Of a DNA stretch of 64,000 nucleotides, positions 38,542-64,000 are shown piece after piece. How positions within the stretch are numbered: position 1 is the stretch's first letter; every line of letters begins with the position of its first letter. Source of the DNA: Bacteroidota bacterium. Lineage in GTDB: Bacteria > Bacteroidota > Bacteroidia > Cytophagales > Cyclobacteriaceae. Location: the NCBI GenBank assembly GCA_038043425.1, contig JBBTBZ010000013.1:6197-70196 (forward strand), written 5' to 3'. The position numbers and the translations under genes are program-made. The notes under the pieces were generated by a model that saw nothing but the letters and a program-made list of their open reading frames with translations, was not told the DNA's origin and did not search any database.

Positions 38542-38551
38542 GTCCCAAACC

Positions 38552-39742: not shown

Positions 39743-39748
39743 TAGCGT

Positions 39749-42293: not shown

Positions 42294-42344
42294 CCAGACT
42301 TTTATTAAATTGAAAAATGGGTATCTCAACAGGCCAATGATAAC

Positions 42345-43451: not shown

Positions 43452-43493
43452 ATTGAGACCTGACGAGTTTCGACTAACCGCTAAGCTAATTTT

Positions 43494-44279: not shown

Positions 44280-44297
44280 AGCTAAAAGGATTAATCA

Positions 44298-44564
44298 TTA
44301 CTGTTTAAAAACTAAAATCTTTCCGGAATTCACTTCTCGATTTTTCAATGAAAACAGGTTTCGCTGGTAGTACCGATCTGAACGCTGCATGGCACCAATA
44401 TGCCTGCTAATTTTTTGAACTACTTCACGAAGTGAGGTCTTGGGCTCTGCCAAAAGATATCCGTAGCATTCCTGGGAAAAACCCTGCGTCACAAAGTTGA
44501 CTTGAAAACGGCCGGAATCCAGCCGTTTGCTCTTAAGCCTAAGCCTACATTCTAAATCCTCCAT
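44298..44564 (-). CDS. Small hypothetical protein upstream of the repressor
   Basis: 88 aa from ATG 44564 (95 aa from TTG 44585); 18 bp upstream of the repressor on the same strand. No recognisable motif. Confidence 0.3.
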   Translation of the reverse strand: MEDLECRLRLKSKRLDSGRFQVNFVTQGFSQECYGYLLAEPKTSLREVVQKISRHIGAMQRSDRYYQRNLFSLKNREVNSGKILVFKQ

Positions 44565-44597
44565 CTCACTAAATATTTTAGCCAATTAAAGCCATTA

Positions 44598-44635
44598 ATT
44601 TAGTAATTGCAATAATTATGACTAAATATTTTAGT
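44598..44635. promoter_or_regulatory. Inverted-repeat cluster (candidate operator)
   Basis: ATTTAGT (44598-44604) pairs with ACTAAAT (44621-44627). The palindrome ACTAAATATTTTAGT lies at 44621-44635, between the menC stop and the small ORF. Confidence 0.25.
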
Positions 44636-47293: not shown

Positions 47294-50200
47294 ATGAAAC
47301 AACGCATTTTAAAATTCCTGGACGTTGAGCCCGAAGAATCAGCTCCGGTGTTTCTCCTTCTTGCCATAAGCTTCATGTTGGGGATGTTCTTAGCCACTGT
47401 TACCGTTGCTTCCCAATCGCTTTTTCTTACACACTTTAGTGAAACGAAAGATTTGCCGGTGGCACTGGTGATTTCCGGAGTACTAGGTTTAGGAGCAACT
47501 GCTATTTATAATTTCCTGCAAGGCAGGATACCGTTCAGATTTCTAGCCTTGGGAAGTCTATCCATAGTCCTGGCGCTTACTGCCTTTATTGAATTCGGTG
47601 ATTCTTTTGTGGAGGATGTTAATTTCCTTTACTATTATGGTTTTACCCTGATTCTGCCTTTTACCTTCATTTGCCTCCTGGTTTTCTGGGGTGCCTTTGA
47701 GAGGATGTTCAACCTCCGTCAGTCGAAGCGAATAATTGGTAGTGTTGACCTAGGAACAATGGTGGCGCAAATCCTTGCGTTCTTTACCATACCTGTACTT
47801 TTGCAAATTGGTATACCGGTCACCACTCTTTATACCATTGGGCTCTTTAGTATAACAGGCTATTTTCTCTTGTTCTTTGTTTTATCTAACCGATTCTTAG
47901 GAGCTGCAGCGTCCGCTGCTTCTGAAAAGTTCCATCAAAAAATAACAGCTGTTCAATTATTCAATAATAAGTATATCATTTGGATGTCTTTATTTATTAT
48001 CGTTTCACTGGTTGCCTTGCGATTTATCGACTATTCCTTCTTCAACGTATCAACCCAGCGGTTTGACAACGAGCGTCTTCCTTACTTTTTGTCTTTGTTC
48101 GAGGCAACCATCGTGATTTTTAGCTTCCTTTTTACAACATTCGGTACGGACAGAATATTGCAAGACTATGGCTTGAGGGTCTCCCTTTTAATCACTCCGT
48201 TGTTGCTCATCCTCTTTACAGGGGGAGCATTTGCACTTGGTCTGGCCTTTGGTTTTGATGTAAGTAAGGAGGGGAATGTCATCTTCTTCTTTATTATGGT
48301 CGCGATGAGTAAATTATTCATCAACTCCTTACGTGATGCCCTGGATAGTCCGGTATTCAAATTCTACTACGTGCCCATTGATAAAACGATAAAGTTAGAT
48401 GCCCAAACCAAACTGGAAGGATTTGTTACCGCGCTGGGAAGTACCATTGCAGGAGGTTTAATTGTGTTGATTAATCAGTTCAAAATATTCGACCTCTTAT
48501 CAATTACCATGTTTACCATTCCTGTACTGGTGGTCTGGTATCTGGTGACGAATAAAATGTATAGCGGATACCGTAGTACACTACAGAATTCCTTAGTTAA
48601 AAATAAAACTACTGTAGATAAAGACCATGTGAGGGAATACACTATGGACAGCGTTTTGGAAAAGGAAGTGCGAAGCACAGCAGAAGAAAAAGTTATTTAT
48701 GGTCTTCGGCTTACCGAAAAGCTTGAACCCGCCTTATTCGAAAACTCCATCATTAGTCTGGTAGAAAGTAAACTAAAAAAGGTAAAGCAATTCGCTCAGG
48801 ATAAAATCCAACAGTTGGGCCTAACTCCAGAATCTGAAATACATGGTCTGGCAAAGCGTGCTGCCGGTGAACTCGAAGACAGTGATTTACTTTCTATTTC
48901 TCCCGAAAAGCTTATGAAGTTAAGTAAATCGGTAAAGCAAACAGACCGATTACTGGCCGCCAAACTTTTGCGAAAGCTGATCAGCCCAAAAACCATTTTT
49001 ATTCTTTTGGAAATGCTCAGGGATCCAGACCCTAAAGTAAGAAACGAAGCGCTGCTTACAGCCAGAAAAGTCAAACGCCCGGAAACCTGGAACGTTTTGG
49101 TTGAATTGCTTGCCTCTCCCTCCTATTCTTCACAAGCAGCCTCCGCCTTGAAAGAAGCTGGCCAGCCGGCACTTCTATATTTAGAAACCGCTTTTCATAA
49201 ATCAGGTCAAAGCGATCTCGTGATGCTCAAGATCGTATCGATCATTGGCCATATCGGAGGAAAAGAAGGAATGGAACTCTTGTGGAAAAAAGTAGATTAT
49301 CCGGACAAGCGCATCGTAAAACAAATTTTGTACTCCTTTCGCTATATTGATTATCACGCCAAGGGTAGAGAAGTATTAGCTGTAAAAGATTTGCTCGATG
49401 TTGAAATGAGCAAAACGCTTTGGAACCTGGCTGCTCTTGAAGAATTGCCAGCGTTACCTCATTTTGAGTTTCTAAGAGAAGCTTTGAAAGAGGAAATCCG
49501 CGATAATTATGATCACCTGGCGCTATTATTGTCCTTATTATATGACTCAGAGTCTGTTCAATTAGTGAAGGAAAATATTGAAACAGGAACTCCTGATTCT
49601 ATATCCTACGCACTGGAGCTATTGGATTTGTTTGTTGATCAGGATCTCAAACCAAAACTGATACCACTTCTCGATGATTCCAAACTTCTTGACAAACTGG
49701 AAAAACTTCAAACCTATTTTCCGCGGGAAAGCTATAACCCGGTTCAGGTAATAAACTACATCCTCAACAGAGACTTCAATTACAATAATCGCTGGACAAA
49801 GCTATGTGCTGTTCATGCTTCTGCTTACATTCCGGATTTCCGGGTGAGCCGCGGTCTTATCAGCCAAATGTTCAATCAGGACAAACTTCTGCAGGAAACA
49901 GCAGCATGGGTAATTTATAATAAAGATAAAACTATCTACCCCGTCATATCTGAAAGACTACCTCTAAAAGACAAAAAATTCTTAGACTCAGCAATTGAAA
50001 ATAACCAGCTGCTGGATGGCCTGGATGACGGCTTCTTCTTGGGGTTTGAAATGGTATTGTTTATCAAGCAATTGCCTGTCTTCAAGGGGATATCAGGAAA
50101 CTTAGTCAGCGATCTGGCTGATAAAATAATTCCGGTTACGCTTAACGCGAAAGACAAACTCGTTCTGAATGAAGTAGATGACAATCAGCCAATCTTAATT

Positions 50201-50449
50201 TTGGCACATGGGACAGCGAGGATAAAAAACGGAGCGGAAGAAGTTGGTGTGCTTAAACAAGGCGATGTCTTTGGGGATCTGTTTCAGGAAGGCCCTTCTC
50301 AAAAGGTCACCGAAGTGGAGGCAACCGAACGAACAGTGATATTTAAAATCAACCTCGTGGATTTCTATTTTGTACTTGCCAATCATCATGATCTGGTACA
50401 GGGACTTATAAAAAATGTGACGGGCACGCGTGTGAAGCAAACAGTATAG
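47294..50449 (+). CDS. Fusion protein: ~12-TM ATP/ADP-translocase-like (TLC/MFS) membrane domain + HEAT repeats + cyclic-nucleotide-binding (CAP_ED-like) domain
   Basis: Hydrophobic segments span roughly 47340-48560. HEAT/PBS-lyase-like repeats (LLEMLRDPDPKVRNEAL..) span roughly 48940-49330. The C-terminal beta-roll (LPVFKGISGNL...GDVFGDLF...ATERTVIF) spans roughly 50045-50430. Confidence 0.7.
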   Translation: MKQRILKFLDVEPEESAPVFLLLAISFMLGMFLATVTVASQSLFLTHFSETKDLPVALVISGVLGLGATAIYNFLQGRIPFRFLALGSLSIVLALTAFIEFGDSFVEDVNFLYYYGFTLILPFTFICLLVFWGAFERMFNLRQSKRIIGSVDLGTMVAQILAFFTIPVLLQIGIPVTTLYTIGLFSITGYFLLFFVLSNRFLGAAASAASEKFHQKITAVQLFNNKYIIWMSLFIIVSLVALRFIDYSFFNVSTQRFDNERLPYFLSLFEATIVIFSFLFTTFGTDRILQDYGLRVSLLITPLLLILFTGGAFALGLAFGFDVSKEGNVIFFFIMVAMSKLFINSLRDALDSPVFKFYYVPIDKTIKLDAQTKLEGFVTALGSTIAGGLIVLINQFKIFDLLSITMFTIPVLVVWYLVTNKMYSGYRSTLQNSLVKNKTTVDKDHVREYTMDSVLEKEVRSTAEEKVIYGLRLTEKLEPALFENSIISLVESKLKKVKQFAQDKIQQLGLTPESEIHGLAKRAAGELEDSDLLSISPEKLMKLSKSVKQTDRLLAAKLLRKLISPKTIFILLEMLRDPDPKVRNEALLTARKVKRPETWNVLVELLASPSYSSQAASALKEAGQPALLYLETAFHKSGQSDLVMLKIVSIIGHIGGKEGMELLWKKVDYPDKRIVKQILYSFRYIDYHAKGREVLAVKDLLDVEMSKTLWNLAALEELPALPHFEFLREALKEEIRDNYDHLALLLSLLYDSESVQLVKENIETGTPDSISYALELLDLFVDQDLKPKLIPLLDDSKLLDKLEKLQTYFPRESYNPVQVINYILNRDFNYNNRWTKLCAVHASAYIPDFRVSRGLISQMFNQDKLLQETAAWVIYNKDKTIYPVISERLPLKDKKFLDSAIENNQLLDGLDDGFFLGFEMVLFIKQLPVFKGISGNLVSDLADKIIPVTLNAKDKLVLNEVDDNQPILILAHGTARIKNGAEEVGVLKQGDVFGDLFQEGPSQKVTEVEATERTVIFKINLVDFYFVLANHHDLVQGLIKNVTGTRVKQTV

Positions 50450-50542: not shown

Positions 50543-51985
50543 ATGGCTTTTGAAATAGACGTTCTCATCACTTTCGCAGACAAAGACAATGAAACTGCAA
50601 AGAAGAATGAAGCTGGCTGGGTATCGCAATTCAAGAAATTTTTGGAGCTGATGCTCTATCAAGTGCTGGGCGAGAAACCAAACATCCTGTTAAAGGGAGA
50701 ATATGATTCTGTAACTGCCGCTACATTGGACAATGCTGCTGTTCTGGTCACTATTCTTTCAAAAGACTTCGTGCAGTCGGGCAGATGCTTAGATACTGTG
50801 GAGGGATTCTACAAAGCAACCGCTTCATCAAAAGTAAACCGCGTTTTCAAAGTTTTAAAATCCCCCCTCTCCAATCAGGAACATCCTCCCCGCTTACGCG
50901 ATCTGCTGGGATACGACATGTTCCAGTTAGATACAGAAACAGGTTCCATGAAGGAATATTCTGATTTCTTTAGTCTGGAAGCTGAAAAACAATATTGGAT
51001 GAAGATGGTTGACCTTGCTTATGATATACACGAATCACTTCTGCTACTCAGGCAAGGTGAGACAAAATCAGAAGTGAAAAACATCTTTAAAAGAAAGACT
51101 ATCTATCTGGCAGAAACCGGACACGACATATCTGTTCAGCGAAACATCATCAAACGCGAACTTTTGCGTCACGGGTATATTGTGTTACCCAAGCAAACAT
51201 TACCGCAACGTCTCTCTGAACTGGAAACCATGGTGAAGAAAGATCTGGAAGATTGTAGTCTCTCCATTCACTTAATCGGAAGCTCCTATGGAGAAATTCC
51301 GGAAGGCGCGGATCGCTCATTGGTAGACATTCAAAACCAGCTGGCAGCAGAACAAAGCCTGGTGAAAAAACAAAAAAAAGAGGAGTTTGGCCGGTTAATT
51401 TGGATCGCTCCAAACCTCAAGAATGCCAGCGACAAACAAAAATCTTTTATTGATAGCATCAAACGTGATGTGGAAGCCCAGGAAGGGGCTGAGATTCTTC
51501 AGAATCCGCTGGAGGATTTTAAGAACATCATGCGTGAAGAATTATTGGAGTCCCTCGAGAGAAAAGACCCCGATGATTACACAGGCAAATCGATATATGT
51601 AGTACATGACCGGATGGACGATCAGGAGGTTAGACCATTCAAAGAAGCGATTGAAAAATCCGGGTTTAGAATTCTGACACCGGCATTCGAAGGTGAACTC
51701 CTGGACGTGAGGAAAAATCACATTGAGAACCTCAAAAATCTGGACGGAGCGATCATCTTTAAAGGCAAAGTAAATGATCAGTGGGTAAGAATGAAGGCGT
51801 TGGATTTATTGAAGGCACCAGGGTTTGGAAGAAAAAAACCAATCCTTGGAAAAGCTATTGTGTCATCCTCCTCCAACAGCGTTGAGCTGGAAACTTTTAA
51901 GAGTCAGAATATGACCGTTATTTCCGGAGATCAGAATAAAAGGATGGAGTCCTTAAAAATGTTTTTAGAAGAATTTAAAGCATAA
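50543..51985 (+). CDS. Triple-module TIR / DUF4062 / TIR-like domain protein
   Basis: Module 1 starts at residue 1 (FEIDVLITFADKD...ILSKDFVQSGRCLDTVE). Module 2 starts at residue ~185 (KTIYLAETGHD...DCSLSIHLIGSSYG, DUF4062-like). Module 3 starts at residue ~349 (KSIYVVHDRMDD...LDGAIIF). No signal peptide or TM segment. Confidence 0.55.
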   Translation: MAFEIDVLITFADKDNETAKKNEAGWVSQFKKFLELMLYQVLGEKPNILLKGEYDSVTAATLDNAAVLVTILSKDFVQSGRCLDTVEGFYKATASSKVNRVFKVLKSPLSNQEHPPRLRDLLGYDMFQLDTETGSMKEYSDFFSLEAEKQYWMKMVDLAYDIHESLLLLRQGETKSEVKNIFKRKTIYLAETGHDISVQRNIIKRELLRHGYIVLPKQTLPQRLSELETMVKKDLEDCSLSIHLIGSSYGEIPEGADRSLVDIQNQLAAEQSLVKKQKKEEFGRLIWIAPNLKNASDKQKSFIDSIKRDVEAQEGAEILQNPLEDFKNIMREELLESLERKDPDDYTGKSIYVVHDRMDDQEVRPFKEAIEKSGFRILTPAFEGELLDVRKNHIENLKNLDGAIIFKGKVNDQWVRMKALDLLKAPGFGRKKPILGKAIVSSSSNSVELETFKSQNMTVISGDQNKRMESLKMFLEEFKA

Positions 51986-51990
51986 ATACT

Positions 51991-54900
51991 ATGAGCAAGT
52001 CAACTGAAGAAATGAAAGGTGCTTCCACCCAGGTTGGGGTGGATAACCCATTCCCCGGACTTCGTCCTTTCAAAATAGAGGAAAGTCACCTCTTTTTTGG
52101 ACGAGAGGGACAGAGTGACGAAGTCTTGCTAAAACTTTCCAAGAGCCGGTTTGTTGGTGTTATCGGTCCTTCAGGAAGTGGTAAGTCTTCATTCATTTAC
52201 TGTGGGGTGTTGCCCATTTTATATGGAGGCTTTTTAACAGACACCAGTCCTAACTGGGAGGTAGTAGTCACCCGCCCTGGTGCAGGCCCAATCGATAATC
52301 TTGCAGAGTCACTACTCAAGACGTCAAAGGAATACAACAGTGCCGATCCGGATGATCGCAAGATCAAACGTACCATTGTTTCTACTTTATTGAGAAGTAG
52401 TTCCCTGGGTTTGGTAGAAGCCATTCAGCAATCAAGAAGATCTTCGGATGTCAATTACCTGATTCTGGTAGACCAGTTTGAGGAATTGTTCCGCTTCAAA
52501 GATAGTACTGATCCTAACTCTGTAAACGAGACCCTTGCTTTCGTCAACCTGTTGATGGAGGCCATCAACTATACCGACAATCCAATCTACGTAGCCATCA
52601 CCATGCGTTCAGATTTTATCGGTGATTGTTCACAGTTTCCTGAATTAACACGCAAGATCAACGACAGCCATTACCTGATTCCTCAAATGACCCGCGAACA
52701 AAAGCGCAGGGCCATTGAAGGACCCGTGGCAGTTGGTGGCGCTCAGATTTCTCCTCGTCTTGTTCAACAATTATTAAATGACCTGGGAGATAATCCAGAT
52801 CAGCTTCCTATTCTCCAGCACGCCCTTATGCGCACATGGAGTTATTGGGCTAATTACAAAGACTACGATGAGGAAAATGTAGACCTCAAGCATTATGAAG
52901 CCATTGGAACCATGGCTGAAGCGTTGTCGCAGCACGCGAACGAAGCATATGATGAATTGGATGAGGACCAGAAACGGATTTGTGAAATCATATTCAAAGC
53001 GATAACTGAAAAACGAGGTGAGAACTTTGGTATACGCAGGCCTACGCGCTTAAATGAGATCGCATCCATTGCCGATGTTTCCGAAGCAGATGTGATAGAA
53101 GTGCTGGAGAAATTCCGCGAGCCCGGCAGATCACTCCTCACACCAGCTTATGGGACCACATTAGGTTCCAAATCAATGATCGACATCTCGCATGAAAGTT
53201 TGATGCGGATTTGGGTACGCTTAAAGAACTGGGTGGATGATGAAGCAGATGCGGTGCAAATGTATTTGCGTCTGGCGGAAGCGGCTTCCATGTACCAGGT
53301 AGGTAAGGCAGGCCTATGGAGGCCACCGGATTTACAACTTGCACTCAACTGGCAGGTTAAGCACAAGCCAACTTTAGTTTGGGGCCAGCGCTATCATCCG
53401 GCTTTTGAACGTACGATGATCTTCCTCGAATACTCCAAAAAGGAATTCGAGACCGAGCAACGTATAAAGGAACTAGAGCAGAAAAGAAAACTACAACGCG
53501 CCCGTACAGTAGCGTTGGTATTAGGCGCATTCCTGGTGTTGGCTTTGGTGGCTGTGGTGTATGCGTTTGTTCAGCAAACAGAGGCGAACCGTCAACGAGA
53601 GTTGGCTGATGCAAATGCTAAGGAAGCTTTGGTGCAATCTGAATTAGCTAAAAGTGAGGCGGTACGCGCAAATGCTGCGGCTGAAGAAGCTAAAAGAGCT
53701 CAGGCTGAGGCTGAAACAGCAAGAATAGCAGCTGATAAAAGTGCCGCTGAAGCCATTGCCGCTCAGAAAATAGCGGAAGAGCAAAGGCAGTTAGCAATCC
53801 TTCAAGAGCAAAAGGCTTTAAAGAATGAGAAGACGGCAAAAGAGCAAACTAAGATTGCGCAAGAACAAAAAATAATTGCCGATAAAAACGCTGCTGCAGC
53901 TCTCCGTCAGCAATACTTATCAACTGCCAAATCGATGGCCCTGAAGTCAAAGGAACTTACCAATGACGTTGAGCAAGAATCTTTGATTGCACAGCAGGCC
54001 TATCTCTTTAATAAAGCCAATACCGGATATCCGTATGACAATGATATTTATAATGGTCTGTCAAAGGCGCTAAGTCAAAACAAAGATCCACTTACACTGA
54101 ATCTTGAAGGTCACGACAAAGGTGCCGCAAGAGCCTTGGTGGCACACGAAAAAGCGAATCATATCTATAGCGGAGGAAGCGATGGAAGAATTATTCAGTG
54201 GAGCCTGGTTGATAATAAATGGACACCAACTGAATTGGTGGCCTTTAGAGGCGATGTCTATCAGGTTTTTGCTATGGATGTTAGCCCGGACGGACGATGG
54301 CTGGCAGCAGGTGGCTTGGCTGCTGGTGATGCTTCCAAAAATTATGTTGAGCTCTACGACCTTCAAAACATGACGGCACCACCTAAAACGATTAATGGAT
54401 TTGTTTACAATGTGGATGATATTGATTTCACTGTGGACAGTAAAGGATTCTATGCACGCGACAATGCCGGACATAGTATTAAATATTCAGATCTGACAAC
54501 GGCAAGAGAAGTAATCACTGCGAAAGAAAAGATTACAGATATTGCCCTTAGTCCCGATGGCACCAGAATTGCCGGCACAGGAAGTAATGGTATCCTCTAC
54601 TCGTGGGACGTGACTAATAATTTTTCTGCGAAAGAGGTATTTAAAAACCCCTCTGGGGCGGAACTCACTACGCTCGCCTATGCCCCTGATAAAACCAGGA
54701 GAATAATCGTTGGAGATAATGCGGGGCTTATACGGATAGTGACTGAGGATACTAATTTACCTCCACGTATTCTTTCGGGCCACACCGCCCATATTGAACA
54801 AATCCATTTCAACCATGCCGGAAAGTTCGTGGCTACCACCAGCCGTGACAGAACAGTGAGGTTATGGAACTGGGAAAAGTTGAATGAGCAACCGATTGTG

Positions 54901-55164
54901 CTTAGCGACCATGCCGACTGGGTATGGAGTGCAACCTTTTCACCCAATGACGAGCAATTGCTGGTAGGCATCAATAGCAGTAGTAGCAATGCCGCCAAGG
55001 CAAATGAAACCATTCACGCCTGGCCTACTGAAATTGAAAGCATGTCGGGGCTATTGTGCAAATATGTGAAGCGCAATATCAACAAGGAAGAATGGGATGT
55101 GTATGTAAGTACTGACCTTCCCTATGAGAAAACGTGTGACAATTATCCAGCGAATAATAAGTAA
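51991..55164 (+). CDS. STAND-type P-loop NTPase - single TM helix - coiled coil - WD40 repeat protein
   Basis: Lead-in NPFPGLRPFKIEESHLFFGRE. Walker A GPSGSGKSS (52165-52191) and Walker B LILVDQFEE (52456-52485). HESLMRIWVRLKNWV helix. TM VALVLGAFLVLALVAVVYAFV (53509-53571). A/E/K/Q-rich coil (~53578-53950). At least 6 WD40-like blades (~54100-55020; e.g. LSGHTAHIEQIHFNHAGKFVATTSRDRTVRLWNW). Confidence 0.75.
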   Translation: MSKSTEEMKGASTQVGVDNPFPGLRPFKIEESHLFFGREGQSDEVLLKLSKSRFVGVIGPSGSGKSSFIYCGVLPILYGGFLTDTSPNWEVVVTRPGAGPIDNLAESLLKTSKEYNSADPDDRKIKRTIVSTLLRSSSLGLVEAIQQSRRSSDVNYLILVDQFEELFRFKDSTDPNSVNETLAFVNLLMEAINYTDNPIYVAITMRSDFIGDCSQFPELTRKINDSHYLIPQMTREQKRRAIEGPVAVGGAQISPRLVQQLLNDLGDNPDQLPILQHALMRTWSYWANYKDYDEENVDLKHYEAIGTMAEALSQHANEAYDELDEDQKRICEIIFKAITEKRGENFGIRRPTRLNEIASIADVSEADVIEVLEKFREPGRSLLTPAYGTTLGSKSMIDISHESLMRIWVRLKNWVDDEADAVQMYLRLAEAASMYQVGKAGLWRPPDLQLALNWQVKHKPTLVWGQRYHPAFERTMIFLEYSKKEFETEQRIKELEQKRKLQRARTVALVLGAFLVLALVAVVYAFVQQTEANRQRELADANAKEALVQSELAKSEAVRANAAAEEAKRAQAEAETARIAADKSAAEAIAAQKIAEEQRQLAILQEQKALKNEKTAKEQTKIAQEQKIIADKNAAAALRQQYLSTAKSMALKSKELTNDVEQESLIAQQAYLFNKANTGYPYDNDIYNGLSKALSQNKDPLTLNLEGHDKGAARALVAHEKANHIYSGGSDGRIIQWSLVDNKWTPTELVAFRGDVYQVFAMDVSPDGRWLAAGGLAAGDASKNYVELYDLQNMTAPPKTINGFVYNVDDIDFTVDSKGFYARDNAGHSIKYSDLTTAREVITAKEKITDIALSPDGTRIAGTGSNGILYSWDVTNNFSAKEVFKNPSGAELTTLAYAPDKTRRIIVGDNAGLIRIVTEDTNLPPRILSGHTAHIEQIHFNHAGKFVATTSRDRTVRLWNWEKLNEQPIVLSDHADWVWSATFSPNDEQLLVGINSSSSNAAKANETIHAWPTEIESMSGLLCKYVKRNINKEEWDVYVSTDLPYEKTCDNYPANNK

Positions 55165-55335: not shown

Positions 55336-55385
55336 GCTCGCAAAGACGTTTATTGTTTTTTTTTAGTTCTATAAATAATGATGAA

Positions 55386-56447
55386 ATGAGAAAAATAGTT
55401 GGCTTCGTTTTTTTATCTCTTATTTTCTTTTCAAACCATGTATTTGGGCAGGCCTCATCTTGTACCCAAACCCTCCGCCTTGTGCAGTCTACCTATGAGC
55501 AGGGACGATTGCACGAACTGGAAGGCTTAATGACTGCATGTCTTAAAAGTGGATTTGACGCGCAGCAAAAAGTATCGGCATACAAGTACCTCACCCTCGC
55601 TTACATCTACCTGGAAGAGCCTGAAAAAGCAGATGCCGCCATGCTGGAACTGCTAAACTCGGATCACTTCTTCAGTCCCAATGATGCCGTAGACCCAGCA
55701 GAGTTTATTGCCCTATACCGCAAATTCAGGGTTAATCCATTATTCCGCGTAGGATTCAGACTTGGCCCCTCGGCTACTATGCCCGCCATTCGAGAGACTT
55801 TTTATGTGGGTAGTAGTGCCCAGGGAAATGGCAAATTTGCTCCAAAGGTCGGGTTCTCATTGGGCCTGGTCTTTGAAAAGGACTTTCCTGCTTTTATCAA
55901 AAATTTCTCCATCGCGCCCGAAATAGTGTTCATCTCACGAAGCTACAATTACACTAATCCCACATTAGCGGTAAGTGATGAAACCGGAGCTACCACCATC
56001 TCACAGGATCAGAACCTGGTAAAACAGAATTGGCTTGACCTGAACCCGCTCATTCAGTACAAATTCAAAGAAAACAAGTTCAATCCATACGTTAGCATTG
56101 GCCCCGGTATCAGCTATTTGTTGAATTCTTCCTGGGAAATAGCTACCCAGGTGGAAGGTCAGGGTGCCGTTACCGGGTCAGCGGTAGACTCTAAAACCGT
56201 CTACAATCCCCTATCCTATTCCGTTATTGTGGCGGTGGGTTCAAAAATTCGGCTCGGAGGCTTTTACCTTACCGGGGATATCCGGTATCAATACGGACTT
56301 AACAACGTGGTGAATGAATCCAACCGAAGTAACAATGAAGCGCTTTTTGATTACGGATTCGTGCCACCCAATTACAGTCATAACAATTTAACCATCAATG
56401 CAGGCTTGGTGATTCCTTATTTTAGTCCTAAGAAATTGATCAACTAA
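55386..56447 (+). CDS. Outer-membrane beta-barrel protein with N-terminal helical (TPR-like) region
   Basis: ATG 55386 gives the signal MRKIVGFVFLSLIFFSNHVFGQ. A helical ~100 aa is followed by an alternating beta-strand pattern. The track's upstream extension crosses the GC-rich repeat and is not credible. Confidence 0.55.
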   Translation: MRKIVGFVFLSLIFFSNHVFGQASSCTQTLRLVQSTYEQGRLHELEGLMTACLKSGFDAQQKVSAYKYLTLAYIYLEEPEKADAAMLELLNSDHFFSPNDAVDPAEFIALYRKFRVNPLFRVGFRLGPSATMPAIRETFYVGSSAQGNGKFAPKVGFSLGLVFEKDFPAFIKNFSIAPEIVFISRSYNYTNPTLAVSDETGATTISQDQNLVKQNWLDLNPLIQYKFKENKFNPYVSIGPGISYLLNSSWEIATQVEGQGAVTGSAVDSKTVYNPLSYSVIVAVGSKIRLGGFYLTGDIRYQYGLNNVVNESNRSNNEALFDYGFVPPNYSHNNLTINAGLVIPYFSPKKLIN

Positions 56448-56550
56448 AGGTTAATATTTATAAACTGAATTTAATATGTCGTCAGACGTTTCATTTTCTT
56501 AACAAACAAGGCCACTTAGATAATACACTATTGAATTGAATTCTACCACG

Positions 56551-57765
56551 ATGAAAAAAATTCTTTACCTGTCACTAACTGCACTTCTTGCTTCTTGCCT
56601 ATCCGAAAAAAATGCCGACCCCGGCACACCCTCAACGTTTGTCCGCTATTTCAATGGAGGCAATAACGACTTCGCACAGTTAGCGGAAGAAACATCTGAT
56701 AAAGGAATTATCATCCTTGGGACTACAGAGATTACCGATGAAGATCTGACTAAACGATATAAAATTAAGCTTGTTAAAACAGATGAGTATGGAAATGTAA
56801 TCTGGAGCAATGTCTATCCTGCCGATTTCGCCAAGACGGCAGAAAATCTCAGAGGCCGTTCCTTACTTCAACTTGCCTCAGGAGGTTTCATCGTGATTGG
56901 AGAAAATGTGTTGCCCTCTAAGTCCGACATGCATATCATAGAAGTGAGCGCGGATGGTGCAATAGTCACCCAAAAAACAATCGACTTCGGTTCTACCTTG
57001 TCAATTCATGGAGCCGCTATTCAAGTAAACAGCAACGGTAATTACCTGGTGCTGGGAGCCATCGAGGATAACACAGACAATATGTTACTGGCAGAACTTG
57101 ACAAATCAAGTCTTGTTGTACTCTGGGCAAAAAAATACGGGGCAGGAACTTCTTCGCTTTCCGGTAAAATCTTCCTGGATGCTTCCGACAATGTTTTTTG
57201 GTCGGGCACCGTTACACGAAGTTCTTCTGATGTCCGCCTGGTGAAGACGGCCCAAAATTCTTTGAATACACTCTTTGATCTTCCCATTGGCGCACCGGAA
57301 TTTGAAGAAACCGGCAATGACATTTGCCGCTATGGCAACGGCTTTGCCGTAGTAGGAACCACCAACCAAACAACAATAGGTGACCAGGACATACTTTTTA
57401 AAATCCTGGCAGACGATGGCTCAGTGCTGTACAGCAACAATCTGGCTCCCTATGGATTCGGTGATACGGATGTAGGTAATTCTATCACCACCGTAAGAGG
57501 AGGCTTGGCTATTTTAGGAACGGCAAAAACGGTACCTGCGACTGAGGGCGGCCGAGGGCTCGAAGACTATTACCTCATTAAAGTGGACGCTTTCGGAAAT
57601 CAGGTATGGCCTGCCCCCCGGATCTTCGGCAGCAAAAACAAAGACACCGGTGCCAGCGTGCGCCAGATGTCTGATGGATCGTTGCTGGTGCTTGGCACAA
57701 CAGACTTTGGAGGGGTGAACACCATGATGTTGATGAAGACGGATAGCGAGGGGAACATAGAATAG
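56551..57765 (+). CDS. Lipoprotein with repeated propeller-like blades
   Basis: MKKILYLSLTALLASC lipobox. Recurring ...G..I.LGTT....D..L.K.D..GN..W... units. Confidence 0.6.
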   Translation: MKKILYLSLTALLASCLSEKNADPGTPSTFVRYFNGGNNDFAQLAEETSDKGIIILGTTEITDEDLTKRYKIKLVKTDEYGNVIWSNVYPADFAKTAENLRGRSLLQLASGGFIVIGENVLPSKSDMHIIEVSADGAIVTQKTIDFGSTLSIHGAAIQVNSNGNYLVLGAIEDNTDNMLLAELDKSSLVVLWAKKYGAGTSSLSGKIFLDASDNVFWSGTVTRSSSDVRLVKTAQNSLNTLFDLPIGAPEFEETGNDICRYGNGFAVVGTTNQTTIGDQDILFKILADDGSVLYSNNLAPYGFGDTDVGNSITTVRGGLAILGTAKTVPATEGGRGLEDYYLIKVDAFGNQVWPAPRIFGSKNKDTGASVRQMSDGSLLVLGTTDFGGVNTMMLMKTDSEGNIE

Positions 57766-57948: not shown

Positions 57949-60900
57949 ATGAAGAGAATTTTTACTCTTTTTGTTTCCTTAACTTTTTTACTACAACTGA
58001 GATCAGTCAGAAATTTCGTTCTCCTGTTTGCATTTGGATTGGCCTCATGGACAGCTGCCGGGCAACCAACAGTTCCCGTTTCAGGTCTAAACTTTGAGCC
58101 TGTTCCTGGTGCTAACCAATCGACTTCAATTAAAATTAATTGGACGACCAATGGCACAGGCGGTGTTGGCAGGTTAGTTGTGGTTAAGAATGCAACAGGG
58201 GCCTTTAAACCCGTGACCAACACAGACCTTACAGCTTTGGTCAATCCTGATTTTAGTGCTGGAGGTAATGATTTAGATGCTGGAACTGGGATAGCAAAAG
58301 CAGTGGCATTAATTACCGGAGGAGGCCAAACTGCTACGGTAAGTGGTCTAACTAGCGGGACGTCTTATTTTGTTCAAGTGTATGAGTTCAGTGATGCTTC
58401 AACCAGCCCCGATTATATTTTTACGACCAATGCAACAAACCCAAAAGGGTTTACCTACTATTCAGCAGATGGAAATTTTATTGTACCTATTGATGTATCA
58501 TCCGTAACCGTTCAGGCCCTTGGTGGTGGTGGCGGTGGTGGTGGTGCGGATGGGCTAAATACCAACAGTAGAGCGGGTGGTGGAGGAGCTGGAGGCTCTT
58601 ACACATTAGCGGCTGGCACCGCAGTTACTCCTGGTGCTTCAATACCAGTCGATGTTGGGGCTGGGGGCCCAGGCGGAGCCGGTGGAAATAGCTCTACTCC
58701 TGGTGTTACAGGTTTTACTTCAGACTTTGGAGGTCTTGTGACGGCCGTGGGTGGCGCAGGGGGTATAAATGCAACTTCAAGCAATGAGACAGGGGCTGGA
58801 GCTGGAACAACCATAGGCACAACGCGTAATGGTGGTGCTGGTGCTGAGGCTCCGCCTACTGGTGGAGATGACGTTATGGCAACTGCCAGCGGTGCTGGCG
58901 GGGGTGGTGCCGGTACCACAGGCGATGGTTCTCCAGCTTCCGGTTCAACGGCAGGTAACGGAGGAACTGGCGGAGGAGGAATTGGAGCTGCAGGTCTAAC
59001 AGGAATTGCGAGCGGAGCCTTCAGTCTGGGAATTGATGCTACTCAATTTGGAGGCGGTGGAAGTGGTGGGTGGGATAATAATGCAGACATCAGTCCTGCC
59101 AATGGTGGCGCGGGAGCTCAAGGGTATATTATTGTCTCCTACAACGACAACACAGCTCCAACTGCAACCATTATCCGGGAGCCCGCAACAGCGAATCCTT
59201 ATACCAACGCCACATCTGTACAGTTCAAAGTTACGTTCAATGAACCCGTTAGCAACGTAAGCGCTGATGGTTCTGATTTTACAGTGGGGGTGACTGCATC
59301 AGCTACTGCTTCAGGCATTACTGTTTCTGGTACAGGCCCTTACATTGTAACAGTGGCCACTGTTGGCGGGGAAGGAAACCTTGACCTGAATTTTGCAGGA
59401 GGACAAGACATTGTCGATCTCTCTAATAATGCCTTTGGTGGAACAACGTCAGGCGATGAAATTTACACACGTGATGTTACCTCCCCTGCCGTTTTGCAAG
59501 TTGGAAGCATTACCGCCAAAGGCGGAAATGAAGTGGCCGGATATTGGAACTCCACAAATACCACACTGGAAGTGGTTGTTCCGCTTACCGCTGCCGATGC
59601 CTCACTTGACGGAGGCGCTGTTCAAATTCAAATTCAAAATACCACTAACACCGGTTATGTATCGATTCCCGTTACAGGTATTTCAACTATTACCAATGGA
59701 GAGAGAGTAGCGGCAACAAAAACCGTTATCATTTCTGCCGCAAATCTAATTGCCGCATTTTCCTTATTGACAGGATACCAAAACCTGGAACTCCATAATA
59801 TTCAAGCGTTGGTCACTGATGCCGCAGCCGGAAACGCGGCCGCTACTTTCACGGCCAGTGCCTCCACTCTAAATGTAGACACTACACCCCCCGCCACACC
59901 CACAGCGCCTGATTTAGTGCCTGCATCAGATACCAATATAACCACTGATAATATTACCTTCGATGACACACCTACTTTTGATGTCACAGGTATTGCAACC
60001 TTTAGGCTTGAAATTTTAGAGGGAACCAACGTAATTGCTTTTACCAACTCTGCCTCTGGAATACTGGAACAGCTTACCGCAGCCCCTGCATTGGCAGAAA
60101 ACCCTTCGTACTCCATAACAGCCAGGGTATATGATGCAGCTGGTAATTTCGCCACATCACTGGCTATGTCTCCGGTTTTGAATGTGGATTTAACGCCTCC
60201 AACTGCTCCGCAAACTCCAGACATGACCACGGATACTGGATCTTCCGCAACCGATAATATTTCTAATGATAATACACCAACATTTGCCGAGACTACAAGT
60301 AACCTAAACGTAAATGGGCAGGTTATAACCATTAACAGTAGCATTGATGGAGACCTTGCACCGACCACCACCGTGGCTGGCAATGACTACACAGTTACCA
60401 TCACAACCGTAATGAGCAATGGAGATCATAACATAACTGCAACAACCAAAGACGTAGCTGGAAACATTGCCTCTTCAGGAGTATTGGCTATTACAATTGA
60501 TACACAAGTTCCATCCGTTCAATCTATTGTTCGTGCGAGTGCCAACCCCACAACTGCGGCTTCAGTAAACTATACTGTAACGTTTAATGAAAGTGTTCAG
60601 GCATCGACTGTAACCACCGCTGACTTCACTGTTACCGTTACCCTAACAGCTTTAGGAACTGATGCTGCACCTGCTCCAAGCACTGGAAATTCAGCCGTTT
60701 ATACAGTACCGGTCAATACTATTTCCGGTAATGGAACTATTAGGCTTGACAAAGCCAACACTGCTGTTACCGATGTGGCCGGTAATGCAGGTACCAACAC
60801 ATTTACAACTGGAGAAGTCTATGATGTTGATAACCTCAACCCAACGCTGACACTTACTGTCCCTGCTGCCAGTTCTTCGGTAAATACAGCCAATGTTACC

Positions 60901-63900
60901 TACACTCTGTCTGAAGACTTATCCGCTGGGGCTATTACCTGGACAAGGACTGCCGGACCAGCTGGGAACTTTACAGCTACATTAACAGGATCAGAGCTTA
61001 CTTCAGGCACCAAAACCAATATTATCCTCACCAACGCCCCTGCTTTGAACAATGGAGCAACTTATACTGTTGCCCTTAACGGCTCTGACTTGGCAACCAA
61101 TGCAGGTTCAGCATCTACTAATACGCTGGTTGTGTTTGACAATGCTGCACCCAATTTCACTGCCACGGCTCCAGTTACCAGCGCCACAGTTAGCAATGCC
61201 AATGTTTCATTTACTCCATCCGAAACCTTAACCTCAGGTTCTATCACGTGGGCGCTGGTGGCGGGAACTGATGCTGGTGCACCGCATATTCAGGCTCTTG
61301 CCGGAACAGAATTAAACACCACTGCAAAAACGAATGTAATCCTTACCAATAACCCTGTGCTAAAAAATGGCGCAACGTACGATGTTACATTTAGTGGTAC
61401 GGATGCTGCTGGTAACACAGGAACAGTTATAAGCACTGGAGTTATCTATAATGATAATGTGAATCCGACTACAGGTACAGGAACTGTTTTGGCAGTAACT
61501 GCAACAGGCGGTCACCGTCAAGTTGCACTTTATCTGAATAGTACGAATACTGGCCTGGATGTGGTTGTGCCACTCACGGCCACGGATGGAACATTGGATG
61601 GAGGTACTTTGACCTTACGAATTAAAATGACGGGTGGGGCTTTTGCTGATGTTACTGGTTCTGGCGCATCAACGATAACTAGCGCAGAACGCGCAGCAGG
61701 TTCAAAGACTCTTTTAAATGTTCTTAAATCTGATTTGATTGCTGCCGGTCTAACAGAAGGAGTTGTTTCAGGGTTGGCAGCCTCGGAAACCAGCAAGCTT
61801 ATCGTTACTGCAAAAGTGACAGACAATAACAGCAATCCTTCGGCTGATTATACTCAAAGTGTAACGCAAATTGATTATGACAACAGCCCTCCATCAGCTG
61901 TAAGTAATAATTTTACCGTTGTTCCAGGAGCAGGTAGTGGCGGTAGAGATGCTATTGAATTTGTTCCTTCAGAAATTCTCACTGATTTCGCGGCCTCTCC
62001 GGCTGAACGAATAGATACATATCTTTTTGTTAATAGTACCTCAACAGCCTATGCGGCACCGGGTTTATCTGTTGGCGGTGGTACTACTGTCGGGAATTTA
62101 AATAATGCTCAGTACAAATACATTGGAGGAACCAATACGATCGTCCCCTCTTTCATAAATGTTCACTTAGTTTACCTGGAAAGTATTGCCAATAGCGACA
62201 CATGGGATGTGGCCCAAAGTACCAAAGTACAGTATGTTCCTTTCGGAAGCGGCAGTTCGAATGCTGGTATGCTAAGGGATGCGGCAGGAAATGAAGCGGC
62301 TGCTTTTGATTTAGCTGTTTCTGCAGGATCTAATTCTACTTTAGGATCTGCCACCAGTGGGGTTGCCGCGTCTCCTCTTACCAATAGCCAAACCAATCGG
62401 GTCGTGTTTGCTTTCTCGATTACATCAACGACCTCCATTAACTTGACTGCTCTGAGCATCAAAGCCTCCAGCGATCCAGCGCTTAAGCTCAAAACTTTCA
62501 GGTTGTTTTCCAATCCTACCGGTGATAGTTACCCAGTTGGTGCTTCAGACCTTTTGTTAACAGCTACACCAACCACAACCACAGTTGATTTCAACACCAT
62601 GTCAGTAGGGCTAAGTACTACTACCCGGTATTTTTACCTGGTGGCAGATGTGGAAAATTACTTTTTCTCATCTTCTCCCACCATCCAGTTTTCTTTGCCC
62701 TCCAACAGCCTTCCTAATGCTAACGGAGGGTTCACTGTACCCGGTGGATATGCCGGTACTACTCAAACAGGAACTAATTATACTTTGCAGGATCTTACAG
62801 CCCCTACTATAGCAAGCATTACCAACCTTGTCAATCCCATTTTTGAAGGGGCTTTGACTCAATCGGTGAGGATAATTTTTAATGAGCCCATGAACAACAC
62901 CACTGCACCAGCTGCAGGTATGATAAATATTTCAGGGCCATTGAACTGGGGGGCATTTGCTGGTGGTGCCTGGAGTACAACCACACTTACTAATGATACC
63001 TACACCGTTACACTACTTCACAATGGCACTGGTCAAACCAGTTCTGAAACGTCAACGCTTACTGCAGGATCAGGTATTACAGACTGGGGTAGTAACCCGC
63101 ATATTATTGCAACATCAGCCTCATTTGATATTGATACCCAAAAGCCTTTAACCACTGCCGTAACGGCAACCCCCTCCCCTATCAATTTGACAAACCTCGC
63201 ATTGAATATTCAGGTTACGTACAATGAGCCAATGAACAATACCGTAAACCCGGTAATTACATTAAACCCAGTCAACGCGAAATTTTCGGCCGGAGTTGGA
63301 AATTGGGACGTGACTAACATGATTTATTCCATCATCTATACACATGACGGAACAAGCGAGACGAATTTGGTTGGTACTACTGTAAGCGCGAACGGAGGAA
63401 AAGATATCAAAGGTAACACACAAACTGCGGCAGGTACTTCGGGTTCATTTGTTATTGATACCGATCGCCCAACCGCTGTTTTTATTAACCGAAAGAATAG
63501 CCAATATACCAATGGCAGTTCAGTAATATTCCTTGTTCAATTTAATGAACAAGTCAGTGCACCGCTCTCTACAGATTTTACGATCGTTCCTGATGTCGGG
63601 GTGCTTGGCACTTTTATACCAATTGGAGGAATTTCAAATCCCTCGGCAGATAATCTCAATTATGAAGTCGTTGTGCAATTTACAGGCGGAGGTAACGGTG
63701 ACATTCGCCTTGATCTTAACAGTAGTTCATCTTCCATTACAGATTTTAGAGGTAACGTGCTGACCGCGGGCCGCACAGGCGATGAGGTTTATACAGTTGA
63801 CAATACTCCACCTGTAGTGAGTACGATTACTTTACCGGATGCTGACCCCAACAATACTTCATCCGTGGATTTCTCTGTTGTTTTCGATTCGGATGTAACA

Positions 63901-64000
63901 GGCGTTACTGCCGGGGACTTTGCAGCATATGGTAGCGGAGGAGCGGGAACATCCATTTCTTTTTTACCGGTTTCACCCACCACTTACACGGTTACCGTTT
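57949..64000 (+). CDS. Giant cell-surface adhesin-like protein (signal peptide, FN3-like, glycine-rich domain, many Ig-like repeats); 3' end outside the window
   Basis: ATG 57949 opens a frame that stays open to the window end (about 2017 codons), so it is absent from the ORF track, which lists only closed ORFs. It starts MKRIFTLFVSLTFLLQL... and has recurrent D(T/L)TPP(A/T)xP...TDN(I)(S/T)xDxTPTF Ig-like linkers. It is T/A/G/N-rich throughout. Confidence 0.85.
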   Translation, partial: MKRIFTLFVSLTFLLQLRSVRNFVLLFAFGLASWTAAGQPTVPVSGLNFEPVPGANQSTSIKINWTTNGTGGVGRLVVVKNATGAFKPVTNTDLTALVNPDFSAGGNDLDAGTGIAKAVALITGGGQTATVSGLTSGTSYFVQVYEFSDASTSPDYIFTTNATNPKGFTYYSADGNFIVPIDVSSVTVQALGGGGGGGGADGLNTNSRAGGGGAGGSYTLAAGTAVTPGASIPVDVGAGGPGGAGGNSSTPGVTGFTSDFGGLVTAVGGAGGINATSSNETGAGAGTTIGTTRNGGAGAEAPPTGGDDVMATASGAGGGGAGTTGDGSPASGSTAGNGGTGGGGIGAAGLTGIASGAFSLGIDATQFGGGGSGGWDNNADISPANGGAGAQGYIIVSYNDNTAPTATIIREPATANPYTNATSVQFKVTFNEPVSNVSADGSDFTVGVTASATASGITVSGTGPYIVTVATVGGEGNLDLNFAGGQDIVDLSNNAFGGTTSGDEIYTRDVTSPAVLQVGSITAKGGNEVAGYWNSTNTTLEVVVPLTAADASLDGGAVQIQIQNTTNTGYVSIPVTGISTITNGERVAATKTVIISAANLIAAFSLLTGYQNLELHNIQALVTDAAAGNAAATFTASASTLNVDTTPPATPTAPDLVPASDTNITTDNITFDDTPTFDVTGIATFRLEILEGTNVIAFTNSASGILEQLTAAPALAENPSYSITARVYDAAGNFATSLAMSPVLNVDLTPPTAPQTPDMTTDTGSSATDNISNDNTPTFAETTSNLNVNGQVITINSSIDGDLAPTTTVAGNDYTVTITTVMSNGDHNITATTKDVAGNIASSGVLAITIDTQVPSVQSIVRASANPTTAASVNYTVTFNESVQASTVTTADFTVTVTLTALGTDAAPAPSTGNSAVYTVPVNTISGNGTIRLDKANTAVTDVAGNAGTNTFTTGEVYDVDNLNPTLTLTVPAASSSVNTANVTYTLSEDLSAGAITWTRTAGPAGNFTATLTGSELTSGTKTNIILTNAPALNNGATYTVALNGSDLATNAGSASTNTLVVFDNAAPNFTATAPVTSATVSNANVSFTPSETLTSGSITWALVAGTDAGAPHIQALAGTELNTTAKTNVILTNNPVLKNGATYDVTFSGTDAAGNTGTVISTGVIYNDNVNPTTGTGTVLAVTATGGHRQVALYLNSTNTGLDVVVPLTATDGTLDGGTLTLRIKMTGGAFADVTGSGASTITSAERAAGSKTLLNVLKSDLIAAGLTEGVVSGLAASETSKLIVTAKVTDNNSNPSADYTQSVTQIDYDNSPPSAVSNNFTVVPGAGSGGRDAIEFVPSEILTDFAASPAERIDTYLFVNSTSTAYAAPGLSVGGGTTVGNLNNAQYKYIGGTNTIVPSFINVHLVYLESIANSDTWDVAQSTKVQYVPFGSGSSNAGMLRDAAGNEAAAFDLAVSAGSNSTLGSATSGVAASPLTNSQTNRVVFAFSITSTTSINLTALSIKASSDPALKLKTFRLFSNPTGDSYPVGASDLLLTATPTTTTVDFNTMSVGLSTTTRYFYLVADVENYFFSSSPTIQFSLPSNSLPNANGGFTVPGGYAGTTQTGTNYTLQDLTAPTIASITNLVNPIFEGALTQSVRIIFNEPMNNTTAPAAGMINISGPLNWGAFAGGAWSTTTLTNDTYTVTLLHNGTGQTSSETSTLTAGSGITDWGSNPHIIATSASFDIDTQKPLTTAVTATPSPINLTNLALNIQVTYNEPMNNTVNPVITLNPVNAKFSAGVGNWDVTNMIYSIIYTHDGTSETNLVGTTVSANGGKDIKGNTQTAAGTSGSFVIDTDRPTAVFINRKNSQYTNGSSVIFLVQFNEQVSAPLSTDFTIVPDVGVLGTFIPIGGISNPSADNLNYEVVVQFTGGGNGDIRLDLNSSSSSITDFRGNVLTAGRTGDEVYTVDNTPPVVSTITLPDADPNNTSSVDFSVVFDSDVTGVTAGDFAAYGSGGAGTSISFLPVSPTTYTVTV
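60844..61470 (+). repeat. Two tandem ~103-codon modules inside the adhesin gene
   Basis: Module A (60844-61153) has ..ANVTYTLSEDLSAGAITWTRTAG..LTGSELTSGTKTNIILTNAPALNNGATYTVALNGSDLATNAG. Module B (61154-61470) has ..ANVSFTPSETLTSGSITWALVAG..LAGTELNTTAKTNVILTNNPVLKNGATYDVTFSGTDAAGNTG. Confidence 0.7.

Follow-up and report, generated by a model that had tools for sequence, protein, structure and literature searches.

Conflict systems centered on nSTAND1 NTPases combine the NTPase with TIR-type domains, located N-terminally to it or encoded beside it, and with a C-terminal repeat or lectin sensor (PMC8195603). The DUF4062 domain, now renamed NIR, is a TIR-like NADase effector that occurs in Avs2 and other NLR-like proteins, in the Swarozyc, Evangelion, Vulcan and Vesta systems, and in human TEP1, the architecture of which is DUF4062-NACHT-WD40; a single Glu is essential in every tested DUF4062 (E97 in KpSwz, E87 in Eva01), and its replacement with Gln abolishes the activity of PsAvs2, Vulcan, VstA and human TEP1 (three 2026 preprints). 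Fusions of the NTT-HEAT-cNBD type are described as well; some NTTs carry NAD, and no link of these fusions to TIR or STAND genes is reported (PMC5381601). When TIR or DUF4062 domains are found on STAND NTPases, they are now read almost automatically as NAD+-depleting immune effectors. Here we analyze a stretch of 64,000 nucleotides (hereafter, the window) from a Bacteroidota bacterium of the family Cyclobacteriaceae (contig JBBTBZ010000013.1 of assembly GCA_038043425.1, positions 6,197-70,196, forward strand) that contains two adjacent genes of related composition. Gene 1 (50543..51985, + strand) encodes a protein of 480 aa that consists of three TIR/NDT-fold modules, and gene 2 (51991..55164, + strand) encodes a predicted single-pass membrane STAND NTPase of 1057 aa with a C-terminal WD40 region.

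We propose, with moderate confidence, that genes 1 and 2 belong to a fixed operon and encode a vertically inherited, NLR-like signaling module of the envelope, with gene 1 supplying its cytoplasmic adaptor and gene 2 its transmembrane receptor. From its sequence and genomic context, the pair is best read as vertically inherited and not as a mobile defense island. A first-pass annotation, made from the sequence of the window, had suggested an undescribed, self-contained two-gene system in which a triple TIR/DUF4062 protein serves as the NAD-degrading or signal-generating effector of a membrane-anchored STAND NTPase with a WD40 sensor. The gene coordinates, strand, 5-bp spacing, motifs and Walker A lysine (K65) that it reported are all present, and the alternative that it mentioned, a cell-envelope signaling device, fits best.

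Homologs and loci compared

A scan of 1.84 billion representative sequences yielded 2923 relatives of gene 1, of which 812 (representatives of 50%-identity clusters) were detected at E≤1e-30, most of them about 480-500 aa long. Full-length homologs of genes 1 and 2 number in the hundreds, and therefore, both genes are real rather than chance open reading frames. In the genome scan, 501 GTDB species contained a gene 1 relative; the loci compared here are those of the best 80 species representatives, all of which are Cyclobacteriaceae, Ohtaekwangia or Cytophagales metagenome-assembled genomes with gene 1 proteins 71-90% identical to that of the window. A 42-sequence alignment (A1) was too diverse as a seed for the genome search, and a closer alignment of 12 sequences was used; the 80 kept loci are all at least 71% identical, and the more distant contexts come from exact look-ups of individual loci. 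Used in a further protein search, the A1 profile retrieved mainly Fulvivirgaceae-type sequences, at 55-92% identity. Residues were counted in 217 close orthologs and 150 distant representatives of gene 1, and the conservation and charge figures for gene 2 refer to 120 orthologs.

Gene 1 encodes three TIR-fold modules

The gene 1 product is predicted to be cytoplasmic, and a hydropathy scan shows no hydrophobic segment in it. The AlphaFold2 model (47 homologs; mean predicted local distance difference test score, pLDDT, 78.6) comprises three modules of (beta-alpha)5 topology, which span aa 1-170, 186-334 and 350-480 and are connected by disordered linkers. Module 1 (aa 1-172; 50543..51058, +) is TIR-like: Pfam TIR_2 matches aa 23-129 with 27.1 bits (E 6e-6) against a cut-off of 28 bits, many gene 1 homologs exceed that threshold in the precomputed Pfam assignments, and the gene 1 family profile matches the TIR domains of SNC1 and RPS4 with E 1e-4 to 7e-4. 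Module 2 (aa 186-334; 51098..51544, +) is of the DUF4062/NIR type. Pfam DUF4062 (PF13271) covers aa 187-259 and scores 26.4 bits, which exceeds its cut-off of 24.7; the family profile matches KpSwz (PDB 10wc; E 5.5e-4) through the GxxYG strand, and an alignment with Eva01 is described below. Module 3 (aa 350-480; 51590..51982, +), where the Pfam search of gene 1 finds no family, is a third TIR/NDT-fold, DUF4062-like unit according to AlphaFold2, Foldseek and hhalign.

Compared with the PDB using Foldseek, the whole gene 1 model matches the TIR domains of SNC1, MyD88, TLR1, AbTIR and SARM1, as well as the CMP N-glycosidase BcmB; the TM-scores of the TIR targets are 0.5-0.67, without the aligned module being reported for each match. 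Unspecific matches to tandem Rossmann-like proteins (CoA synthetases) outrank the TIR matches in this whole-protein comparison, and module 3 was therefore modeled alone (AlphaFold2 pLDDT 88.6; predicted TM-score, pTM, 0.84). Its Foldseek matches, with TM-scores of about 0.5-0.67, are nucleoside 2-deoxyribosyltransferase, BcmB, DNPH1 and the TIR domains of SARM1, AbTir and SPARTA. The profiles of modules 3 and 2 align with an hhalign E-value of 1e-4, and module 1 gives no significant profile-profile alignment with either of them, such that sequence kinship is detectable only between modules 2 and 3. Taken together, the AlphaFold2, Foldseek and profile results show that the description of gene 1 as three tandem TIR-like modules is correct; Pfam, AlphaFold2 and Foldseek agree with the triple TIR/DUF4062 architecture originally proposed, with the third module being DUF4062-like.

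Module 2 is the best conserved of the three modules. In module 3, H393, D401, W414, K418, K424 and the PGFGR loop are nearly invariant. Three-module units resembling gene 1 also occur in fusions, with Ser/Thr kinases at one or the other terminus or with a CHAT peptidase (P0310, P0311, P0324, P0338, P0336, P0290), and other relatives of gene 1 carry an additional TIR domain.

The canonical glutamate is absent from both recognizable TIR-type modules

Profile alignment of module 1 with SNC1 and RPS4 places Thr85, at the start of helix C, where the S-x-W-C-x-x-E motif has its catalytic Glu. This position is taken by T, N, H, S, I or A in the close orthologs, with Glu in 0/217, and by Glu in 83 of the 150 distant representatives. 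In module 2, the alignment with Eva01 (sequence from plasmid pMW2; hhalign probability 89%, E 2e-6) equates S259, D262, Q264 and N265 with S82, E85, E87 and Y88 of Eva01. Thus aligned, Gln264-Asn265 replaces the catalytic Glu-Tyr, of which the Glu is E87 in Eva01, E97 in KpSwz and E108 in PsAvs2. Position 264 is Gln in all 217 close orthologs and in 132 of the 150 distant representatives, 14 of which have Glu. A Gln in place of a catalytic Glu typically keeps substrate binding.

The first-pass annotation had called for a check of the catalytic Glu, and this residue is missing from both modules that are recognizable as TIR-type, which makes the NAD-degrading or signal-generating role that it envisaged for gene 1 unlikely. 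Near the replaced position of module 1, the close clade conserves two acidic residues, D84 and E87. To judge from the alignments, the family archetype consists of a canonical-looking TIR, a Gln-variant DUF4062 and a third DUF4062-like unit, in this order. The lineage of the window appears to have additionally lost the TIR Glu, with position 85 now drifting while the rest of gene 1 stays constrained.

The possibility that the loss of the TIR Glu coincided with the gain of the operon context described below was considered and rejected: P0263 and P0360 keep Glu in the same type of operon.

Gene 2 encodes a STAND NTPase with a predicted periplasmic WD40 propeller

The N-terminal part of the gene 2 product is an nSTAND1 NTPase (aa 20-436; 52048..53298, +), which is predicted to be cytoplasmic. 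The match to PF20703 (E 1e-97) spans positions 1-372 of the 379 model positions, and both Walker A (GPSGSGKS, with K65) and Walker B (LILVDQFEE) are intact. The sole strongly hydrophobic helix of the protein, a transmembrane helix with a hydropathy of 2.9, follows at aa 509-527 (53515..53571, +), and the nSTAND1 partners of distant gene 1 relatives also have a helix at the equivalent place. The next segment (aa 528-700; 53572..54090, +) is rich in Ala, Glu, Lys and Gln, a composition that suggests a coiled-coil stalk, presumably spanning the periplasm; this region shows a weak, low-complexity resemblance to TolA and GltJ. The remainder of the protein (54091..55164, +), predicted to be periplasmic, consists of a WD40 beta-propeller (aa ~701-1010) and a C-terminal tail; matches to Pfam WD40/beta-propeller families cover approximately aa 710-1000. 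Accordingly, the domain calls and the membrane anchor of the earlier description hold: nSTAND1 and WD40 are correctly assigned, and there is one transmembrane helix.

Two features of the orthologs bear on topology. The number of Lys and Arg residues averages 7.0 in the 20 residues before the transmembrane helix and 3.2 in the 20 residues after it, and the distant partners are alike in this respect; furthermore, Cys1023 and Cys1049 in the C-terminal tail are both kept in 120/120 orthologs. The charge bias and the invariant Cys pair support an N-in/C-out orientation, in which the NTPase would be cytoplasmic and the stalk and WD40 propeller periplasmic. The products of the downstream genes, too, are expected to function in the periplasm. 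Identity among the orthologs is approximately 90% in the NTPase and linker (aa 20-508), 45% in the coiled coil and 55% in the WD40 region.

Coupling of genes 1 and 2

Genes 1 and 2 are co-directional (+) and lie 5 bp apart. In each of 12 distinct contexts outside the close ortholog set (12/12), the gene 1 relative adjoins, or is fused with, an nSTAND1 gene, and in P0364, a gene 1-like protein is fused N-terminally to nSTAND1 (a Rosetta-stone fusion). Adjacency together with fusion argues that the two genes are functionally coupled, in agreement with the original pairing, and suggests that gene 1 is the split-off effector arm of an NLR-type protein. On high-GC contigs, the pair is found alone, without the HEAT protein, the barrel or the lipoprotein that accompany it in Bacteroidota.

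The spacing of the two genes is 5-40 bp elsewhere, and about 390 bp in L033 and about 245 bp in L044; these long gaps could reflect an insertion or a different start codon. The fused P0364 (L083, 4780-10919) has no C-terminal sensor; a 1072-aa NACHT protein with an FGE-sulfatase (lectin-fold) domain precedes it, and PIN toxin-antitoxin genes and transposases lie on either side of the locus. The nSTAND1 partner in L084 (9452-12619), from a high-GC genome of 9.3 Mb, has the GTP_EFTU, D2 and D3 domains past a transmembrane-like segment, where the window has WD40. This EF-Tu-like part may serve as a decoy-type sensor integrated into the protein; to find EF-Tu outside the cytoplasm would be odd. 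In L087 (5121-7979), a kinase fusion of the gene 1-like unit is followed by an nSTAND1 gene.

The pair is the middle of a conserved operon

In this organism, the two genes occupy the middle of a conserved operon of five to six genes, rather than forming the self-contained two-gene system that the first-pass annotation had suggested. The order of the upstream gene, gene 1, gene 2, an outer-membrane barrel gene and a gene for a ~410-aa protein is kept in every sufficiently long locus of the 80 species. The same five-gene order, usually complemented by a giant protein with a Por_Secre_tail domain, recurs in Fulvivirga kasyanovii and in loci with only 31-40% gene 1 identity. The outer flanks of these distant loci are different, and in several of them, stop and start codons overlap. 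The barrel gene overlaps gene 2 in L082, L088, L090 and L094, and the lipoprotein gene overlaps the barrel gene in several lineages. Strict synteny across the family, in combination with the lack of a defense or NADase phenotype, had been named beforehand as evidence against the original proposal, and the order is indeed fixed and the genes unusually well conserved.

In the loci with gene 1 proteins 71-77% identical to that of the window, identity is 63-75% for the upstream gene product and 65-69% for full-length gene 2, compared with 52-62% for queA and 56-64% for the menC-like gene. Gene 1 and the NTPase half of gene 2 are better conserved than their housekeeping neighbors and are subject to purifying selection. 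In L090, which has the same queA/menC flanks, the gene 1 product (P0252) is only about 41% identical to that of the window, with gene 2 at 61% and queA at 57%, and the near-invariant H243 is replaced by Leu; gene 1 seems to have evolved much faster in this lineage.

The upstream partner (47294..50449, +; 1051 aa) contains about 13 hydrophobic helices (aa 1-420), HEAT repeats (aa ~540-620; Pfam HEAT_2, E 1.7e-9) and a cyclic nucleotide monophosphate (cNMP)-binding-like region (aa 955-1031; cNMP_binding, 25.2 bits, below the 27.5 cut-off). In Bacteroidota-type loci, this gene is always immediately upstream of gene 1. The membrane part matches no Pfam family, TLC/NTT included, even at E≤10, and has no sequence relative in the PDB. 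In L094, proteins of 482 aa (TIR_2) and 294 aa (LD_cluster2/SLOG) are encoded directly upstream of the HEAT gene of the operon (2686-5011), which, by their domain content, is a Thoeris-like TIR and SLOG pairing beside the operon.

The outer-membrane beta-barrel (55383..56447, +) belongs to OMP_b-brl_2 (E 1e-17) and has a signal peptide and an N-terminal helical region. It scores 30.5 bits against the PorT/SprT NCBIfam equivalog, far below the 125-bit cut-off, suggesting only a distant PorT/SprT paralog within OMP_b-brl_2. The mechanically called frame opens at GTG 55245; position 55383, where a typical signal peptide (MRKIVGFVFLSLIFFSNHVFGQ) begins, is the more probable start. The next gene (56536..57765, +) encodes a probable lipoprotein of 409 aa that begins with MKKILYLSLTALLASC... 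and carries a lipoprotein signal; it appears internally repetitive by eye, and family searches return no match and no repeat family. The positions of the barrel and of the ~410-aa gene are conserved in relatives. Finally, a giant surface protein (57949..64000, +), of which only the start (more than 2017 aa) lies in the window because the open frame exits it, has a signal-like N-terminus, a Gly_rich_2 domain and the Ig-like Big_13 and Big_5 domains. Giants at the same position in relatives are 2400-3100 aa long and end in the Por_Secre_tail of the type IX secretion system (T9SS; L082, L088, L092).

The flanks of the operon in the window are housekeeping genes (queA, men genes, phosphoenolpyruvate carboxylase), and no mobile-element genes lie near the pair, as had been noted at the outset. 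Rfam contains no riboswitch or RNA element matching 46.9-58.1 kb, and a scan for sigma-70 promoters and terminators, which is uninformative for Bacteroidota, gave fewer promoter-like sites than shuffled sequence. The menaquinone set of the window (38528-45721) comprises chorismate-binding MenF-like, thiamine pyrophosphate-dependent MenD-like, AMP-binding MenE-like and MenC-like genes and is interrupted at 43494-44279, on the opposite strand, by a LexA-like repressor (HTH_3/Peptidase_S24) that is approximately 70% conserved across the family. Elsewhere in the window, a 1018-aa protein (5169-8225, +) joins an N-terminal TerB domain to an ABC ATPase and an ABC-2 membrane domain, an uncommon fusion.

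An envelope signaling module and its alternatives

Going beyond the observed architecture, linkage, conservation and residue replacements, we infer the following signaling steps. The periplasmic WD40 propeller, held on its coiled-coil stalk, would read a state of the outer-membrane or surface components encoded downstream. This sensing would drive nucleotide-dependent oligomerization of the cytoplasmic nSTAND1 domain, and the resulting oligomer would template the assembly of the three-module TIR-fold protein encoded by gene 1. In this lineage, the gene 1 protein would act as a non-catalytic scaffold or nucleotide-binding adaptor, not as a NAD+-destroying enzyme, and the HEAT/cNMP-binding membrane protein would be the likeliest output partner. 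The locus is a widespread counter-example to the effector reading that is customarily given to these domains. If gene 1 is such a scaffold, the locus is also a case of an immune-type module being reused for ordinary envelope signaling in Bacteroidota; it would also provide a natural pseudo-enzyme for dissecting functions of DUF4062 and TIR beyond catalysis.

A further step, which we offer only tentatively, is that the locus represents a domesticated NLR-like system: a trans-envelope machine that monitors an outer-membrane/T9SS surface complex and signals, via a catalytically silent TIR/DUF4062 scaffold, to the HEAT/cNMP protein. Should this be the case, the operon would be a prokaryotic counterpart of receptor-to-TIR-adaptor signaling, in which a natural E-to-Q DUF4062 is conserved as a ligand-binding or assembly module.

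Several points weigh against the assignment of the pair to adaptor-and-receptor signaling. Conflict and anti-phage systems are the best-known setting of nSTAND1, TIR and DUF4062, and the high-GC relatives look conflict-like, with variable sensors (WD40, EF-Tu-like or none) and with kinase and CHAT fusions; one of the high-GC loci has PIN toxin-antitoxin genes and transposases as neighbors. In operons of the same type, P0360 retains Glu at the TIR position and P0263 retains it at both, and therefore, an enzymatic output may be ancestral to the operon. In the window lineage itself, D84 or E87 might substitute for the lost residue, leaving gene 1 with a residual or altered chemistry. The N-terminal membrane domain of the upstream protein, the presumed output partner, resists classification. 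The topology, the partner contacts and the output that we propose are themselves derived from sequence features and gene order by inference.

The main alternative is a fixed defense function of the abortive-infection or NLR-like kind, in which the periplasmic WD40 would sense phage attack at the envelope, gene 1 would still be an enzyme that consumes NAD+ or makes a signal, acting through non-canonical residues (for example, D84, E87 or a pocket in module 3), and the HEAT/cNMP protein would be a signal-gated effector. We consider this rather unlikely. It draws on the family background, in which nSTAND1 occurs in conflict systems and both TIR and DUF4062/NIR act as NADase effectors in Avs and NLR-like proteins, on the conservation of D84 and E87 in the close clade and of the catalytic Glu in P0263 and P0360, on the faster evolution of the sensor half of gene 2 compared to the NTPase half, and on the weak resemblance of the upstream cNMP-binding region to the cNMP-binding parts of Pycsar-type effectors in PADLOC. 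However, the WD40 region diverges at about the rate of the neighboring genes and is not hypervariable, and the synteny is strict in 80 species, with conservation above that of the housekeeping neighbors. Moreover, module 2 naturally carries the very Gln that inactivates four tested DUF4062 enzymes, the residue at the TIR Glu position drifts, the operon includes no nucleotide cyclase, PADLOC returns no match, and neither defense nor mobile genes are found in the neighborhood. If the defense reading were correct nonetheless, the locus would represent a rare case of an envelope-sensing NLR system in the core genome.

It is improbable that the pair forms a self-contained two-gene system with neighbors that are conserved by shared ancestry only and have no functional link to it. 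The high-GC relatives do carry the pair alone, and in the window, the gaps to the neighbors (93 bp upstream and ~220 bp downstream) exceed the 5 bp within the pair. Against this, the five-gene order survives to 31-40% gene 1 identity amid entirely different outer flanks, overlaps of barrel with gene 2 and of lipoprotein with barrel genes occur in several lineages, and a stalked, periplasmic WD40 propeller is most readily understood alongside envelope partners.

Least probable of all is a regulator of nucleotide or NAD transport, with the upstream protein as an NTT-HEAT-cNBD-type carrier tuned by gene 2 and by gene 1, the NAD- or nucleotide-binding pockets of which would be catalytically silent, according to envelope or nucleotide status: the parallel in upstream architecture with fusions whose NTT relatives in some cases carry NAD, the substrate binding that Gln264 may have preserved, the high conservation of module 2 and the 63-75% identity of the upstream gene all fit it, but the membrane part shows no TLC/NTT match at E≤10 and no PDB relative, cNMP_binding falls below its cut-off, and the barrel, the lipoprotein and the giant surface protein are left unexplained.

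Comparison with known systems

PADLOC names no system here, consistent with the claim that the pair matches none: gene 1 has no PADLOC match, gene 2 has only P-loop-level matches of ~25-35 aa (mad3, E 4e-4; mad8, E 5e-3), and NCBIfam has no specific match for gene 1 or gene 2. Thoeris, Pycsar and Avs, as represented in PADLOC, share with the operon only single parts, namely, TIR-fold proteins, a cNMP-binding membrane protein and a STAND NTPase. Unlike Thoeris, the operon contains no ThsA (a SIR2, Macro or SLOG gene); unlike Pycsar, it contains no cyclase; and unlike Avs, which is a single polypeptide, it has the effector arm in a separate gene.

In animal TLR/IL-1R-MyD88 signaling, TIR domains serve as non-enzymatic assembly scaffolds. 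The arrangement proposed here would work in a similar way, with a single-pass receptor, an extracytoplasmic repeat sensor and cytoplasmic TIR-fold adaptors lacking the Glu, and Foldseek pairs the folds of the gene 1 modules with the TIR domains of MyD88 and TLR1. The similarity is one of operation only and implies no homology of the receptors; in addition, the oligomerizing part in the present case would be the NTPase, and the assembly of gene 1 is a feature of the proposed mechanism.

The upstream partner resembles the NTT-HEAT-cNBD fusions in that a membrane domain, HEAT repeats and a C-terminal cNMP-binding-like domain follow in the same order, and differs from them in having no detectable TLC/NTT domain.

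Among the NIR effectors (NIR-Avs2, Swarozyc, Evangelion, Vulcan, Vesta), KpSwz and Eva01 align with module 2, including the beta-A aromatic residue and the GxxYG strand. TEP1 and NWD1, of the TEP1/NWD1/NWD2 group with the DUF4062-NACHT-WD40 architecture, share with genes 1 and 2 the logic of DUF4062, STAND NTPase and WD40. Gene 1 differs from all of these in having Gln-Asn in place of Glu-Tyr, in the two TIR-fold modules that flank the DUF4062 and in being a separate polypeptide. The NTPase of gene 2 is nSTAND1 and not NACHT or Avs, its WD40 region is predicted to be extracytoplasmic, and the distribution of the locus is conserved rather than patchy.

The nSTAND1 conflict systems are also among the closest. 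Gene 2 contains a full-length, high-scoring nSTAND1 domain, and the high-GC relatives display the sensor variability expected of such systems. The locus described here differs in that the effector arm is a separate three-module protein, a transmembrane helix and a putative coiled coil are inserted between the NTPase and the sensor, and the genes are fixed, syntenic and highly conserved, in an operon with envelope proteins. The claim that the pair is undescribed stands in part: our literature search found no paper on this combination of gene 1, gene 2 and operon, but a TIR-type effector with a STAND NTPase and repeats is a known kind of system, given that DUF4062 was demonstrated to be an NADase effector in 2026. 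Thus, the domain families and the general NLR logic are already known, and what is unusual is the combination of a separate triple TIR-fold polypeptide, a conserved Gln-substituted DUF4062, a membrane between STAND and WD40, and a fixed, slowly evolving envelope operon.

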